This document shows, piece after piece, positions 29,054-46,876 of a stretch of DNA of 64,000 bases. The notes under the pieces are model-generated. The model saw only the letters and a list, made by a program, of their open reading frames with translations. It was not told where the DNA came from and did no database searches. This DNA comes from Escherichia phage KKP 3954. The translations under genes and the position numbers were made by a program. The stretch lies in the sequence record OR067838.1, one strand, 5' to 3'. Positions within the stretch are counted from its first letter, which is position 1. Each line of letters starts with the position of its first letter.

Positions 29054-29132
29054 TGGAGGCGGGAATTGGATTTGAACCAATGATCTCCAGCATATGAAAC
29101 TGGCGAGGACGACCAGACTCCTCTATCCCGCT
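29054..29132 (-). tRNA. tRNA-Met (CAU), CCA encoded
   Basis: Manual fold: acceptor AGCGGGA/UCCCGCC, D-stem GAGG/CCUC, anticodon loop UUCAUAU, T-arm AUUGG-UUCAAAU-CCAAU. Confidence 0.6.
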
Positions 29133-29139
29133 ATCATGT

Positions 29140-29208
29140 ATCCCGTGCTGGATTCGAACCAGCGTCACAATAAATTGTGGATCTCTTATCCTGTAAGTCT
29201 AACGGGAA
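29140..29208 (-). ncRNA. tRNA-like RNA with aberrant anticodon arm
   Basis: Canonical T-arm GCUGG-UUCGAAU-CCAGC and 6-bp acceptor, but the middle folds only as CACAA-UUUA-UUGUG; 69 nt. Confidence 0.35.
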
Positions 29209-29210
29209 AC

Positions 29211-29284
29211 TGGTTGTTTCGACAAGAATCGAACTTGTGTCTCACGATTATCAGTCGTGGGTTCTACCATTGAACTACGAAACA
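29211..29284 (-). tRNA. tRNA-Ile (GAU)
   Basis: Perfect 7-bp acceptor, D-arm GUUC/GAAC, anticodon loop CUGAUAA, T-loop UUCGAUU, CCA encoded. Confidence 0.7.
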
Positions 29285-29290
29285 TTTAAT

Positions 29291-29367
29291 TGGTCGGAAT
29301 TGCAGGATTCGAACCTGCGACCCTACGCTCCCAAAGCGTATGCTCTACCAAACTGAGCTAAATTCCG
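29291..29367 (-). tRNA. tRNA-Pro (UGG)
   Basis: 7-bp acceptor, D-arm GCUC/GAGC, anticodon stem UACGC/GCGUA, loop UUUGGGA. Confidence 0.7.
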
Positions 29368-29372
29368 TTATA

Positions 29373-29448
29373 TGGCTGGTCTGTCTGGATTTGAACCAAA
29401 CCTACGACAGTCAAAGTGTCGTGTGCTACCGGACTACACTACAAACCA
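29373..29448 (-). tRNA. tRNA-Gln (UUG)
   Basis: Acceptor with one G-U, anticodon stem CGACA/UGUCG, loop CUUUGAC. Confidence 0.65.
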
Positions 29449-29546
29449 ATAAATCATTTAATGAAGGGCAACCAGAAGAAGTGTGAGAGAAGGAGAAAAC
29501 CATGAGTAAAAGAGAAAGTTTTCTGGCAACCCTTTATTAAATAATT

Positions 29547-29620
29547 TGGAGCGTTCTACGAGGATCGAACTCGTGCCGCCGACTTGGAAGGACGGAATGC
29601 TACCGCTACACCAAGAACGC
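29547..29620 (-). tRNA. tRNA-Gly (UCC)
   Basis: 7-bp acceptor, T-arm ACGAG-UUCGAUC-CUCGU, anticodon loop CUUCCAA. Confidence 0.65.
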
Positions 29621-29933
29621 CCTATATATTTACTATACTACATTTTACTATTTGTTGTCAAGACTTTTATTGATTGGGACAGTGACGAGTATCCCGTTGG
29701 GTGACTAGCCCTACGTTCGGTAAGCTAACTTAAAATAATACAAAACCAAAGTCAAATATTATTCTTCGTTGCTGTCGATGGGAGAGCCGCTTCTCATTTT
29801 GCCCCATCCAACCCTACTCCGGTCAAGTTTCGGGTGACTCTTTTTGTGATCAACACAATACTAAGAACACTGTCTTTCGAGCAGACCTTGTGCACAGGAA
29901 CGACGATCAATCACAATGCTCTTAATGTTGTGT

Positions 29934-30008
29934 TGGTGCTCCCACACTGAATCGAACAGAGATCCACGGATTACAAAACCGTTGTAATAGCCATTATACT
30001 ATAGGAGC
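29934..30008 (-). tRNA. tRNA-Thr (UGU)
   Basis: Acceptor GCUCCUA/UGGGAGC, anticodon loop UUUGUAA; D-stem weak. Confidence 0.5.
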
Positions 30009-30015
30009 AATGCTG

Positions 30016-30091
30016 GGACTCGGCAGGATTCGATACCTGCAATTCCAGAAGCCTATTGGCGACTGGGGGTTTACCTTAACTCTACAAGTCC
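30016..30091 (-). ncRNA. tRNA-like RNA with 8-nt T-loop and no canonical anticodon arm
   Basis: Perfect 7-bp acceptor and T-stem GCAGG/CCUGC with loop UAUCGAAU; interior gives only short tetraloop hairpins. Confidence 0.3.
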
Positions 30092-30098
30092 ATAATTC

Positions 30099-30184
30099 TG
30101 GCGATGAGTATAGGATTCGAACCTATATTGTTCTTTCGAACACGGATTAACAGTCCGCCGCTTAAACCGTTCAGCCAACTCATC
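30099..30184 (-). tRNA. class-II-shaped tRNA with anticodon GUU (Asn anticodon on Ser-like body)
   Basis: 7-bp acceptor, G73, anticodon stem GCGGA/UCCGU, loop CUGUUAA, long variable arm GUUC-GAAA-GAAC. Confidence 0.45.
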
Positions 30185-30190
30185 TTAATT

Positions 30191-30278
30191 TGGTGGTGAG
30201 TGATGGAGTCGAACCACCCGAATCGCAATGATAACAGATTTACAGTCTGCCCCGCTACCCCTACGGAATTAACTCACC
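30191..30278 (-). tRNA. tRNA-Tyr (GUA)
   Basis: 88 nt with long variable arm, anticodon loop CUGUAAA, A73, CCA encoded. Confidence 0.6.
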
Positions 30279-30409
30279 TAAATACTAATATTTAAATTCT
30301 TTTTAAAATAGCCAGTGTTCGCACCACTAACTATGAGTTATCGGTAAGATGGTGGGGGGCTATCTTCCGAAAGTTTACTCTATTAAAGTAAGCTACATTA
30401 AAAAGAACT

Positions 30410-30495
30410 TGGCGGTAGATGTAGGACTCGAACCTACACGCCGTTTCCGACTACAGTTTAGCAAACTGTCGTGGCTACCATTTCACCAATCTACC
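30410..30495 (-). tRNA. tRNA-Ser (GCU)
   Basis: Long variable arm GUCG-GAAA-CGGC, anticodon loop UUGCUAA, G73. Confidence 0.65.
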
Positions 30496-30500
30496 TAATC

Positions 30501-30591
30501 TGGCGGAAGGAGGGAGAGTCGAACTCCCAAGGCTCTTTCAAGCTCGGCGGTTTTCAAGACCGTTTTCGTCGCCACATCGATTTGCCCTTCC
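30501..30591 (-). tRNA. tRNA-Ser (UGA)
   Basis: 91 nt, long variable arm, anticodon loop CUUGAAA, T-arm GGGAG-UUCGACU-CUCCC; position 8 is C. Confidence 0.5.
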
Positions 30592-30825
30592 ATACTTATA
30601 ATCTAACATAAAATAATGATTGTTGTCAATACTTTTTTAAAACATTTTACCATGAATGGTGACTCCACCAACCCCCGTTCTCCACGAACGGTGCTCTTCG
30701 AGCATTTATGTCTTCTAATATAACCGTGGCCTTTGTTTATAATGTCTGACATACTTGCCTCATTCTCTGCCACCATGATCAGTAGTGGGTTCAAATCACT
30801 TGAGCTAATTCATGTTAAAATGTTC

Positions 30826-30900
30826 TGGTGTCTTTACAAGGAATCGAACCTTGACTAAGAGTTTAGAAGACTCCTGTGCTATCCATTACACCATAAAGAC
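30826..30900 (-). tRNA. tRNA-Arg (UCU)
   Basis: Perfect acceptor, D-arm GUGU/GCAC, anticodon loop CUUCUAA. Confidence 0.7.
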
Positions 30901-30902
30901 GT

Positions 30903-30977
30903 TGGTGGCCCTGGCTGGTTTCGATCCAGCTACCTATCGGTTATGAGCCGACAGCTCTCCCATTGAGCTACAGGGCC
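30903..30977 (-). tRNA. tRNA-Met or Ile2 (CAU)
   Basis: Perfect acceptor GGCCCUG/CAGGGCC, D-arm GCUC/GAGC, anticodon loop CUCAUAA. Confidence 0.6.
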
Positions 30978-41403: not shown

Positions 41404-41432
41404 TTGACTTGCGGGATTAGTTATGATATTAT
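41404..41432 (+). promoter_or_regulatory. sigma70-like promoter
   Basis: TTGACT, 17-nt spacer, TATTAT. Confidence 0.45.
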
Positions 41433-41461
41433 GCCTACCTACTTAATGAGGTAGGCTTTTT
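41433..41461 (+). terminator. rho-independent terminator
   Basis: GCCTACCT/AGGTAGGC hairpin plus TTTTT. Confidence 0.45.
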
Positions 41462-41471
41462 AGGAGGCGTT

Positions 41472-41681
41472 ATGAAAAAGATTCTGACAGTCGTTCTTTT
41501 AGCTTTTAGTTTCACAGTAGCAGCAGGTCAAATTACTTTAATCTTGTCTGATTCTGAAGTTAATGGCAACACAAAATATTGCTACTATTCTAACGCTAAC
41601 CAAGATGAAGTTATAGCAATCCCGAAAAGTCGTCAATGTCCGTATACTAAAACATTCTCAACAGAGGATGACGATGAATAA
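41472..41681 (+). CDS. small secreted protein
   Basis: N-terminal signal-like MKKILTVVLLAFSFTVAAG. Confidence 0.3.
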   Translation: MKKILTVVLLAFSFTVAAGQITLILSDSEVNGNTKYCYYSNANQDEVIAIPKSRQCPYTKTFSTEDDDE

Positions 41682-42122
41682 TTAGGGGGAAATATTAGCG
41701 GTTATATTTTAATTAAACCTGAAGATCTTCATTTATATGTCAACGAAGAAACAATAGCTGCAATTGATTATGATCAGATCGCTTTCCAAGCAGCGTCTGC
41801 ATTAGAGAAAAGAACAATCATTGCGAAGCACATCCCTTCGGGTGCTCAAAAGGAATTTAAAAATAAGACAGAGTTTTGGGGTAAAAGCAAGACTAAAATT
41901 GGAGGTTGGCTAGGAGATACAAATGCAGAAAGAGCCTCCAAAAACAAACGTCCCTTCACAAAGGAAGAGTTCGAAATCATTGATAAGCAATACCCGCCAG
42001 AAGATATCGGACACACCTTCCAAGCAGCTAAAACAAAAGTCTTAGGTATTCTAAAACATCTACGTTTAGAAAAATATTGCGGAGTTATTGGCGTAGGAAA
42101 AACTTTCAGACACGCCTTCAAA

Positions 42123-42812
42123 ATGCCCGTAGAATATAAATCTGAACGGTTAGATATCAAACCACTTCAGCTTTCAGAAACCAAAGATTATCTTGTGGAA
42201 TTCCACAATGGTGATGTTGTTACTGTAATAGAGGCTGACGATGAGTTGGAGAAATATGGTTTCCAGGGTTATAAAGATTATAAAAGGACGGGTAAATTTT
42301 CTTATATCGTAGTGTCTATCGATAAAGATAGTTTACATACTCCTAGTATCCTTTTTAATTTCTACAAAGAAGATGGAGTCTTTAAAAACCCAGATATAAT
42401 TCTTATTGATGAATCTATTGGCGACATATGGATCGTAGATAAAGGTAAAAAGAAAGAAGTTAAAGGTTGGGGCAGTTACTGGTTAGCATATCAAATGCTA
42501 ATGGGAGATAAAACAGATAGTATCCGACCTTATCAAGATTTTGATATTAAGTTTGGAGATATTACTTGTTTTAATCTTCTTTCAGCTTGTAAAACTCAAG
42601 CAGAGCTTTTCCAAACAGTTAAAGATACTTACTACTCATGGTTCCCAGATGGTGTTAATTTTACTTCTTGGGATGGAGAAGAAGTCCATATGACAACAGA
42701 TGAATGGATAGAAACAATTTTCCAGTTGGTATACATGAAACGCTGGGATAATGACGATACAACATTTGAGAGTATGCTTCAGTCATACATCTCACAACAG
42801 GAGGCAGAGTGA
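42123..42812 (+). CDS. hypothetical protein; open frame extends upstream to 41682 without canonical start
   Basis: Same frame is stop-free for 377 codons from 41682; strong SD AGGGGGA at 41683-41689. Confidence 0.35.
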   Translation: MPVEYKSERLDIKPLQLSETKDYLVEFHNGDVVTVIEADDELEKYGFQGYKDYKRTGKFSYIVVSIDKDSLHTPSILFNFYKEDGVFKNPDIILIDESIGDIWIVDKGKKKEVKGWGSYWLAYQMLMGDKTDSIRPYQDFDIKFGDITCFNLLSACKTQAELFQTVKDTYYSWFPDGVNFTSWDGEEVHMTTDEWIETIFQLVYMKRWDNDDTTFESMLQSYISQQEAE

Positions 42813-43459
42813 GCAGATTAACAGAAGAGCAGAAAGCAGATATCCTTAGTATGAGTGCAGAGGGTATGTCTTCTCGCAATATTGCAGCAATTGTTTTAGG
42901 TAGTCCAACAAGAAAAAGCACAGTAAATGATTTCCTTGCACGTTTCGGTGCAAGTAAACAAGAGCCAGTTAAAAAGAAACAACCAGTTATTAAAATTATT
43001 GATGTTGAAACTGCACCAGAGATTGCATATACTTTCCGTCGATTCAAAGCCTTCATTTCTCCAGACCAGGTAATTCGTAGGGGTTATTTGTTATCTTACT
43101 CTTCTGCTGATTTGTATACAGGTGAAGTAGAAGGTAAGAACTTATCTTCTTATCCTCTTTTCGATATCGATCATACAGACGATTGGGAGCTTTGCCAAGA
43201 TCTTTGGAACCTTCTGAATGAGGCAGATGTAGTTGTGGCACACAACGGGTATAAGTTTGACCGTGCATACATTAACCAACGATTTGCATATCACGATATG
43301 GCTCCTCCTTCTAATTATGTAGTTGTTGATACATTGAAGGCAGCTAAGAAACAATTTGCACTTCCTTCCAACTCCCTTAAAGAAATGGGAGCATATTTCG
43401 AAACAGAAAGTGAAAAACTGGATAACGAGGGGTTCCCCTTTATGGAAAGCATGTTGTGA
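42809..43459 (+). CDS. DnaQ-like 3'-5' exonuclease, N-terminal part
   Basis: Exo I IDVETAP, Exo II AHNGYKFD; N-terminal HTH-like segment. Confidence 0.5.
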   Translation: MSRLTEEQKADILSMSAEGMSSRNIAAIVLGSPTRKSTVNDFLARFGASKQEPVKKKQPVIKIIDVETAPEIAYTFRRFKAFISPDQVIRRGYLLSYSSADLYTGEVEGKNLSSYPLFDIDHTDDWELCQDLWNLLNEADVVVAHNGYKFDRAYINQRFAYHDMAPPSNYVVVDTLKAAKKQFALPSNSLKEMGAYFETESEKLDNEGFPFMESML

Positions 43460-43769
43460 AGGTGATCGTGATGCTTTTGAACGTATGCAGATTTACAATG
43501 ATGGCGATGTTGTTTCACTCCGTGATTTGTATATGAAAATCCTTCCGTGGATTCCACAGCATCCTAACTTATCCGCTTATTACCCAGATGAGAAGGTCCG
43601 TTGTTCTCGTTGTGGCAGTGATCACGTTCACGTTGTTACTGGTAAACAATACCACACTGCGGTAAGTTCTTTCGATATCATTCGTTGTGAATCTTGCGGA
43701 GGTTTGTCACGTAGTAGAGCAAACACCAGATCCAAGGATAAACGAGCAGCAACTATCATCGGAATCTAA
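43356..43769 (+). CDS. DnaQ-like exonuclease, C-terminal part after frameshift
   Basis: Exo III YNDGD then Cys4 zinc ribbon; frames meet at GGGG/CCCC runs near 43420-43430. Confidence 0.45.
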   Translation: MHFLPTPLKKWEHISKQKVKNWITRGSPLWKACCEGDRDAFERMQIYNDGDVVSLRDLYMKILPWIPQHPNLSAYYPDEKVRCSRCGSDHVHVVTGKQYHTAVSSFDIIRCESCGGLSRSRANTRSKDKRAATIIGI

Positions 43770-45865: not shown

Positions 45866-45875
45866 GGAGAAAAAA

Positions 45876-46289
45876 ATGACAAAACAGATTTCGGCTAGTA
45901 TTATTGCACATTCCATCACTGAAGACGGAAAAGAGATTGTAACTTTCGAACTTGAATATCCACGTATTATTCATTCAGAACTGATGACTCACCGCCTGTT
46001 CAGTCGTAACGCTGCTTCTAGCCGTGCTATACCTGTTAAAACACTGATCGAAATGGTGCGAAATCAGCCTGCTCGTCCTTATCGTTTTGGTGCTAACCAA
46101 CCTGGTATGCAGGACAAAGGTGTTGACCATGATGCTCTTATTGATGCAGGTTATACTGCTCAAGAGTGGTGGGATCTTGCCGCGCTTAGCGCAGCACGTT
46201 TTGCAGAAGAATTCTCTTTGGCAGGGAATACCACAAACAAGTTGCAAACCGTCTTCTGGAACCTTTCCAACGAATTAAAACAGTTCTGA
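45876..46289 (+). CDS. thyX: flavin-dependent thymidylate synthase ThyX-like, N-terminal part
   Basis: THRLFSRNAASSR fits ThyX (R)HR-x7-S-x-R with Thr for the first Arg. Confidence 0.5.
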   Translation: MTKQISASIIAHSITEDGKEIVTFELEYPRIIHSELMTHRLFSRNAASSRAIPVKTLIEMVRNQPARPYRFGANQPGMQDKGVDHDALIDAGYTAQEWWDLAALSAARFAEEFSLAGNTTNKLQTVFWNLSNELKQF

Positions 46290-46357
46290 CAGCAACAGAA
46301 TATGAAAATTTCTGGTGGCTACGTGATGACAAAGAAGCCGATCCTACTATCGAAGCT

Positions 46358-46876
46358 TTGGCTAAAGAGATGCACAAAGAGTATGAAGAATCTACACCAG
46401 AAGTGCTGAAACCAGGGCAATGGCACACACCTTATGTAGACCATTTCTATGATAATATTGGCACAGAAGGTGACGATCATTTTGTTTTTGGTGGATACTA
46501 CGTTCAAGATGAATCTGGAGAAGTTGTTGTGCTTACTTTGGAAGAAGCTAAAGCTATTTCAGCTTCGTGTTGTGCACAGGTTAGCTATCGTCGTTTGAAT
46601 GCAACTAAAGATAAAGCTTTAGATATTTATGGTCGTTTGCTAACTGGGCGCAAGGTTCATGCTTCTCCATTTGAACATCAAGCCACCCCAATGCAAGAAA
46701 CATGCGAACAATACGGAGAGAACTGTTTTGAAGATTTGTTTATCAATGCTCCTTGGGATTTTAACTCTTGGGAACCAGGTATTACCCATGTAGATCGTAA
46801 TGGTAAGTTTTGGTCTGGCAATTTCAAAGGTTGGATTCAACATCGTCAACTTTTAACAAATCATACTAAATGGTGA
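46358..46876 (+). CDS. thyX: ThyX-like, C-terminal part after frameshift
   Basis: Frame open from 46190; ANRLLEPF...TATEYENFWWLRDDKEADPTI matches ThyX NF-x-LR-xD block. Confidence 0.45.
   Translation: MAKEMHKEYEESTPEVLKPGQWHTPYVDHFYDNIGTEGDDHFVFGGYYVQDESGEVVVLTLEEAKAISASCCAQVSYRRLNATKDKALDIYGRLLTGRKVHASPFEHQATPMQETCEQYGENCFEDLFINAPWDFNSWEPGITHVDRNGKFWSGNFKGWIQHRQLLTNHTKW

Follow-up and report, generated by a model that had tools for sequence, protein, structure and literature searches.

The stretch of DNA analyzed here, called the window throughout, comprises 64,000 nucleotides of Escherichia phage KKP 3954 (OR067838.1), a member of the genus Phapecoctavirus (phAPEC8-like coliphages; myoviruses of the Stephanstirmvirinae). 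The locus of interest lies at 41682–42812 on the plus strand, in a region that is 95–99% identical to 64 Phapecoctavirus records. It consists of an open reading frame (ORF) of 376 sense codons and a TGA stop (42810–42812), which begins directly after the TAA (41679–41681) of a 69-amino acid ORF (41472–41681, +) encoding a signal-peptide-like small protein of the family phrog_4641. An earlier note on this DNA, made from the sequence alone, had described the open frame and stated that no ATG, GTG, or TTG occurs in it before 42123. Both statements hold, the ATG at 42123 being the first canonical start codon, 147 codons in. We assign the frame to an intact gene for a putative 5'-3' exonuclease of the flap endonuclease (FEN) family, spanning 41694–42812 (+; 372 codons plus TGA), and, on comparative evidence, we put the probability that this gene starts at the near-cognate codon ATT 41694 at roughly 0.85.

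After the upstream TAA the sequence reads TT-AGGGGG-AAAT-ATT, that is, a Shine-Dalgarno (SD) element AGGGGG (41684–41689, +) is separated by a 4-nt spacer from the ATT (41694–41696, +) that we take as the initiation codon. The SD forms a predicted duplex of −9.3 kcal/mol with the 3' end of 16S rRNA and reads AGGAGG in most relatives. The earlier note had called its AGGGGGA strong, which this value bears out, but had read it one base too far to the left, at 41683–41689 rather than 41684–41690. The same 4-nt spacer is found in both flanking genes, in the form TAGGAGG-CGTT-ATG at 41472 (−10.2 kcal/mol) and AGGAGG-CAGA-GTG at 42809 (−10.3 kcal/mol). The GTG of the downstream gene (42809–42811, +) overlaps the FEN stop codon as GTGA, a typical coupled junction. 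ATT 41694, 12 nt 3' of the upstream TAA, is the sole candidate with an SD at working distance; two further codons, ATT 41706 and ATT 41712, were rejected as starts because they lie at least 14 nt from the SD (14 nt for ATT 41706). The internal ATG (42123–42125, +; context CACGCCTTCAAAATG), which specifies Met144 of the full-length protein and is the start used by gene callers, has no SD (0 kcal/mol). The predicted fold of the mRNA around the SD and AUU was no different from that of shuffled sequences (z = −0.86), giving no sign of a regulatory structure there.

Given the base composition, a random stretch of 147 codons without a stop has a probability of about 4e-5. The window has 100 open frames that reach 100 codons or more; none has a longer lead without a canonical start than these 147 codons, and the runner-up has 68. 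ATG, GTG, and TTG together make up 4.9% of the codons of 33 proxy genes, from which a run of 143 codons without any of the three has a probability of about 7e-4, and the longest such run within any other gene is 103 codons. Because about one run of this kind is expected per genome of about 150 kb, its occurrence alone is only mildly unusual; the remarkable part is that no canonical codon is found at the real N-terminus. A search of the window for other near-cognate starts yielded, as the next long start-free leads, only antisense frames or noise, or the frameshifted thyX (46190–46876).

Coding potential of the N-terminal region

The earlier note had judged that the codons upstream of the ATG look coding, and comparison with relatives agrees. 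Relative to close relatives, the N-terminal part has a proportion of nonsynonymous differences (pN) of 0, with a proportion of synonymous differences (pS) of 0.045–0.056. Across genera, synonymous sites are saturated (pS 0.66–0.90), whereas pN is 0.16–0.40, values similar to those of the C-terminal part. Residues 1–143 alone, which include the peptide PEDLHLYVNEETIAAIDYDQIAFQAASALEK, matched 672 phage records in a tblastn search, and no stop or frameshift was found in the disputed part in about 40 loci. Against a pseudogene or degraded 5' end speak the absence of nonsynonymous change at a pS of about 0.05, the cross-genus pN well below pS, and the roughly 40 intact loci. Taken as a whole, the sequence comparisons indicate that the 143 N-terminal codons are under purifying selection and homologous to FEN-family nucleases. 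This part supplies the invariant residue D25 and strands 16–25, 39–46, 93–100, and 127–137 of the structural model described below; judging from the model, the predicted fold depends on it, as does the presence of at least one invariant catalytic-type aspartate, D25. That residue precedes the first ATG by 119 codons, and no ATG, GTG, or TTG lies between the upstream in-frame stop and D25. The evidence places the N-terminus at or adjoining 41694, in a gene that is intact.

Predicted function of the encoded protein

The translated full frame matches phrog_107, annotated 'exonuclease', over amino acids 14–371 (E = 1e-55), and the N-terminal 147 residues match the same family by themselves (E = 5e-7). 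Thirteen of 36 aligned homologs match PF02739, the 5'-3' exonuclease N-terminal domain, at E <= 0.01, and one of the 36 matches PF01367. An AlphaFold2 model built from the 36-sequence alignment has a mean predicted local distance difference test score (pLDDT) of 95.5 over the full length and a predicted template modeling score (pTM) of 0.89. Its best Foldseek matches are the T5 D15 FEN and E. coli ExoIX (probability 1.0; 5hp4, 5hmm, and 3zdc); the 5'-nuclease domain of mycobacterial Pol I is matched as well, and the best matches overall have probabilities of 0.93–1.0. When the PDB was searched with the family profile, one weak FEN match was obtained, to the 5'-3' exonuclease 9l56, which spans the motifs FR..YK..R, G-EADD, and DKD.

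Residues D25, F55, F138, R139, Y148, K149, E180, D182, D183, D210, K211, D212, D272, and D275 are invariant in the 36 homologs, and D27 is conserved in at least 90% of them. The N-terminal domain is PIN-like, with clustered conserved carboxylates. The helical-arch motif F-R-x(n)-Y-K-x-x-R is present as KTFRHAFKMPVEYKSER, in which R152 is at least 90% conserved, and it aligns to TFRHML..YKSNR of 9l56. Further downstream, a candidate for the G-D-x-x-D motif of the C-terminal helix-3-turn-helix region is the segment MGDKTDSIRPY, which contains the invariant D272 and D275 and gives a weak, non-significant alignment (domain 2) to GDKADNIPG of 9l55. An equivalent of the second N-terminal aspartate of the T5 enzyme, which we take to be D68, was not identified in the window protein. 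As judged against the phrog_107 profile and solved FENs, an insertion of roughly 55–90 residues separates the first strand from the FR..YK motif (residues ~38–125, window ~41805–42068). It is modeled confidently as a small beta/alpha module and is conserved from rV5-like to ICP1-like phages.

In its predicted fold, in the motifs FR..YK..R, G-EADD, and DKD, and possibly in GD..D, the protein resembles T5 D15, T4 RNase H, E. coli ExoIX, and the Pol I 5'-nuclease, whereas it differs from characterized FENs in its insertion and in the profile and structural scores weighed below. Sequence and model together predict a flap-endonuclease or 5'-3' exonuclease function for the 372-residue protein, and the sequence suggests a divergent FEN subfamily with a large insertion. 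The gene neighborhood, with an RdgC-like gene 5' of the small ORF and a DNA-polymerase exonuclease-subunit-like gene 3' of the FEN gene, is a replication and recombination module.

Start codons across relatives

Homologous loci were gathered from phage records, IMG/VR, metagenomes, and Logan/ENA contigs. The profile-based part of the search used a 10-sequence alignment, as the 36-sequence alignment had no stretch that was conserved enough. At each locus the interval from the in-frame stop to the motif IDYDQ was scanned, and the codon preceded by the best SD was taken as the start. This yielded 27 distinct start contexts at 50–100% protein identity, with ATT in 10, ATC in 9, ATA in 6, and CTG in 2; ATG, GTG, or TTG stood at the homologous codon in none of the 27. 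Every one of these contexts has an SD (AGGAGG, AGGGGG, or a close variant; −7.3 to −12.6 kcal/mol), and the start codon follows the SD hexamer by 4–5 nt and opens the conserved N-terminus (I/L)-(S/T/G)-G-Y/F. In relatives the upstream stop lies just 5' of the SD or inside it, whether the preceding gene is the small ORF, a methyltransferase, or an HNH endonuclease, and at four loci (L035, L036, L038, and L051) the ATC comes immediately after an in-frame TAA. Thus, at these loci the frame opens exactly at the near-cognate codon.

No canonical codon precedes the indispensable conserved residues in 16 of 24 surveyed contexts, and the remaining eight have one without an SD; where canonical codons do occur before D25, the calculated SD energies are only 0 to −3.8 kcal/mol. 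In sister lineages the first canonical codon is found at scattered positions, among them codons 6, 10, 12, 16, 29, and 45, and such starts are therefore caller artefacts. By comparison, the equivalent N-terminus begins with ATG or TTG in six outgroup contexts at 30–42% identity, among them Certrevirus and Vequintavirus, the Certrevirus ATG lying one codon downstream (M-G-Y versus I-S-G-Y). A neighbor-joining tree that took 24 of the 27 near-cognate contexts, three later additions having been left out, showed these contexts to be monophyletic, with at least eight start-codon changes inside the clade by Fitch parsimony and none of them to a canonical codon.

Initiation at ATT 41694, one of two options that the earlier note had offered for the missing start, is strongly supported by the strength and spacing of the SD, by the near-cognate codons in 27 contexts, by the abutting TAA codons, by the Certrevirus ATG one codon downstream, and by the annotation of phage ESCO13 described below. 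The other option, a start lost to an indel, is rejected by the relatives.

Annotation of the gene in public records

The first 400 nt of the frame are unannotated in 41 of 60 listed records, and five of the 60 carry no annotation at all. Twelve place small 'hypothetical proteins' over this segment, phAPEC8 having a 40-amino acid off-frame ORF. phAPEC8, the WPEC phages, and other records carry short off-frame ORFs at 41923–42045 (+) and 41846–42160 (−) under the name 'hypothetical protein'; these are most likely spurious gap-fillers that arise from the truncated FEN call. Of the 60 listed records, ESCO13 alone has a 'putative exonuclease' covering this segment, in both its GenBank and its RefSeq copy. 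The ESCO13 entry (KX552041.2/AQM50955.1) describes the same gene at 98–99% DNA identity, with a coding sequence (CDS) that runs from the codon homologous to 41694 and a ribosome-binding site feature; it is an annotation only, without comparative analysis, and is not mentioned in the corresponding genome announcement. In Justusliebigvirus (phi92 and relatives) an equivalent 84-nt lead is present in 56 records, one of which, vB_Eco_PATM, annotates it by transfer from ESCO13.

Literature searches found nothing specific on the ATT start or on near-cognate starts in phage FEN genes. Near-cognate initiation as such and the ATT start in the ESCO13 annotation are already known; the clade-wide conservation with switching among four near-cognate codons and the mis-annotation in more than 100 genomes appear to be new, the literature searches having turned up no paper on either. 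Several records (MG065650.1, MG0656xx, OP562383.1, and MH252123.1) are labeled as Campylobacter, Acinetobacter, Klebsiella, or Serratia phages and are 98–99% identical to the coliphages considered here over this region. Contamination or broad naming, rather than the true host range, may lie behind those labels.

Alternative explanations

A FEN gene that starts at ATT 41694 has several points weighing against it. Compared with Pfam, the window protein matches no family at E <= 0.01, and the TM-scores of its model to solved FENs are just 0.3–0.6, which we attribute to the large insertion. ATT, ATC, ATA, and CTG encode isoleucine or leucine, so the pattern across relatives could by itself mean that a hydrophobic residue is conserved; this objection is answered only because no upstream start exists and stops abut the codon. 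The statistical case for active avoidance of ATG at the start is modest and suggestive only, 0 of about seven or eight third-position changes having gone to G (P of about 0.06 under a naive model). Literature searches returned no proteomic or ribosome-profiling data on the N-terminus of the gene, and any purpose of the weak codon, considered in the Discussion, is pure conjecture.

Among the alternatives, the one that survives best, and which we still consider improbable, is that both forms are made, with a full-length protein from AUU accompanied by a shorter isoform, the C-terminal part alone, from the internal AUG. E. coli is capable of SD-independent initiation, which would permit a minor product of this kind, and the sequence around the internal AUG is A/U-rich and probably unstructured. 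However, this AUG has no SD, and Met144 is not kept outside the close clade, the family consensus at this position being leucine or other residues. The shorter fragment would also miss part of the PIN-like core. Met144 sits in the middle of the FR..YK..R hallmark motif, in KTFRHAFK-M-PVEYKSER, and its codon is most likely an ordinary internal methionine codon.

It is less probable again, and in our view very unlikely, that only a 229-amino acid protein is made from ATG 42123 and that the 147 upstream codons are an untranslated relic of a longer gene. This is how most gene callers and most public records have it, and ATG 42123 is the sole canonical start in the frame. Against it stand the complete absence of nonsynonymous change in the upstream part among close relatives and its strong constraint across genera at saturated synonymous sites, as well as the invariant D25 and the four core strands of a confident fold that this part holds. 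Furthermore, the ATG is not only without an SD but splits the FR..YK..R motif, and the first canonical codon falls at arbitrary positions in the sister lineages. We regard the 229-amino acid product that most genomes annotate as an artefact of the gene callers; it would be a decapitated FEN.

Readthrough or frameshifting from the upstream ORF, by which the N-terminal part would be reached as a fusion protein, is scarcely credible. The 69-amino acid ORF and the FEN gene do share a frame in the window, with one TAA between them, and a database protein of 444 amino acids (P0005) resembles such a fusion. Yet the DNA of P0005 has a TAG at the junction where the stored protein has glutamine, and the 'fusion' is a gene-calling artefact because the TAG was read as Gln. 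The source of P0005 is a Logan contig from SRR30397360 (locus L024) for which the caller evidently used a TAG-recoding genetic code, a choice that the missing canonical start may have prompted. The two ORFs lie in different frames in Justusliebigvirus, so no frame relation is conserved between genera. Other lineages have a methyltransferase or HNH endonuclease gene in the upstream position; the signal-peptide-like N-terminus of the upstream product would be implausible on a DNA nuclease; and a dedicated SD precedes the near-cognate start in every lineage. 

Finally, loss of a canonical start in this genome through an indel or sequencing error, which had to be checked because the window has private frameshifting indels elsewhere (CCCC versus CCC at 43435–43438 and an extra AA at 46227–46228), is excluded for practical purposes because close relatives share the start sequence, which is identical in those examined among the 64 Phapecoctavirus records and in metagenomic contigs, while the SD plus near-cognate architecture is found also in Justusliebigvirus (56 records) and in uncultivated relatives down to 50% identity.

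Phage tRNAs

An initiator-like tRNA(CAT) is encoded at 29054–29132 on the minus strand (ARAGORN fold). It has the initiator hallmarks of an unpaired A1 x C72, the pairs G2-C71/C3-G70/G4-C69, and A11:U24, but not the three consecutive G-C pairs of the anticodon stem that are checked by initiation factor 3 (IF3), having A29-U41, G30-C40, and U31.G39 instead; its discriminator is U73, and its D-loop is long. This tRNA is conserved in 128 Phapecoctavirus and Justusliebigvirus records, mostly labeled tRNA-Met and, in two BASEL-collection records, tRNA-fMet. It does not track the near-cognate clade, because related tRNAs occur in many unrelated phages, and a link between tRNA(CAT) and the near-cognate start is speculative. 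We also looked for a phage tRNA that combines an isoleucine anticodon with initiator features; there is none, the tRNA-Ile(GAT) being an ordinary elongator.

In all, ARAGORN called 10 tRNA genes at 29054–30977 on the minus strand: two for Met and one each for Ile, Pro, Gln, Gly, Thr, Asn, Ser, and Arg. The 'Met' tRNA at 30903–30977 looks like tRNA-Ile2, with a GGCCC acceptor stem. An eleventh tRNA-like match at 30194–30278 (Rfam, 39 bits) was not called by ARAGORN.

Other features of the window

Between the RdgC-like gene and the small ORF, at 41404–41456, lies a good sigma-70-like promoter match (TTGACT, 17 nt, TATTAT, with a TG; 10/12). Directly after it comes what looks like a terminator hairpin, GCCTACCT...AGGTAGGC with a T-run, and a terminator is annotated at this place in one relative.

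The gene downstream of the FEN gene, for a DNA polymerase exonuclease subunit (42809–43769), is split into ORFs 42809–43459 and 43356–43769, whereas relatives have a single ORF of 319 amino acids. The split is caused by one extra C, CCCC at 43435–43438 as against CCC in seven relatives, and removing one C restores the 319-amino acid ORF. The extra C is either a sequencing error in the homopolymer or a private mutation that inactivates the gene. Likewise, thyX, encoding a FAD-dependent thymidylate synthase (45876–46876), has an extra AA at 46227–46228, with GGGAATACC as against GGG--TACC in ESCO5. The frameshift yields ORFs 45876–46289 and 46358–46876 in place of the single 999-nt CDS of ESCO5. 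The A-run at 45870, between the thyX SD and its ATG, is one A longer than in ESCO5.

Discussion

If the FEN gene starts at ATT 41694, 30S subunits would bind the SD, and the host initiator fMet-tRNA would pair imperfectly with AUU, with a mismatch at the third position, so that the product would begin fMet-Ser-Gly-Tyr. Ribosomes that end on the upstream ORF, 12 nt away, may re-initiate at the AUU or assist initiation there, which would amount to translational coupling. AUA, AUC, AUU, and CUG, exactly the four codons that occur in the clade, form a near-cognate class that is reported to initiate at roughly 1–2% of the level of AUG in E. coli, as measured in one reporter context (PMC5499595). 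IF3 discriminates against near-cognate starts (PMC5499595), and re-initiation is IF3-sensitive as well (PMC2268962). Because of this discrimination against near-cognate complexes, the weak codon probably keeps the nuclease low or IF3-sensitive, and output would be expected to respond to IF3, temperature, and guanosine tetraphosphate (ppGpp).

The closest parallels are infC, which encodes IF3, and pcnB, which encodes poly(A) polymerase I, where a near-cognate AUU behind a functional ribosome-binding site is likewise conserved in evolution. The product of pcnB is a nucleic-acid enzyme that is harmful in excess, as a FEN would be. AUU is reported to start only these two genes in E. coli; the AUU/AUC start of infC is conserved and IF3-regulated, and IF3 discrimination is the means by which the weak codon sets or regulates the expression of both genes (PMC5499595). 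Unlike infC, which is autoregulated by its own product, the nuclease gene has no such feedback, either shown or conceivable. It also differs from both genes in belonging to a phage, in its possible coupling to an upstream ORF, and in having a start codon that wanders among AUU, AUC, AUA, and CUG.

One hypothesis is that the weak codon is kept since excess FEN is harmful or because the timing of its synthesis needs control. It is possible, if on balance unlikely, that the weak start does more than damp expression and is a selected regulatory device that ties FEN synthesis to the initiation state of the host (IF3, ppGpp, and temperature) or to translation of the upstream ORF and so sets its stage or level; that the phage tRNA(CAT) decodes such starts is a remoter idea still.

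For annotation, the consequences extend well past this phage. More than 100 Phapecoctavirus and Justusliebigvirus genomes, including those of the type phages phAPEC8 and phi92 and their RefSeq entries, carry a truncated or clipped exonuclease or a spurious small ORF at this locus, and metagenomic gene callers clip the gene at arbitrary internal codons or even switch the genetic code. The correcting rule is to look for an SD followed by ATT, ATC, ATA, or CTG at the conserved N-terminus. A 'missing start' in a single genome is thus resolvable through comparative analysis alone.

E. coli has very few naturally conserved near-cognate starts, and the FEN gene offers a natural system in which to ask why weak starts are selected; it could also be used to study IF3 discrimination during infection. 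If the weak start does prove to be a regulatory device, the phage would have its own version of infC-type control, one that has outlasted at least eight codon switches.

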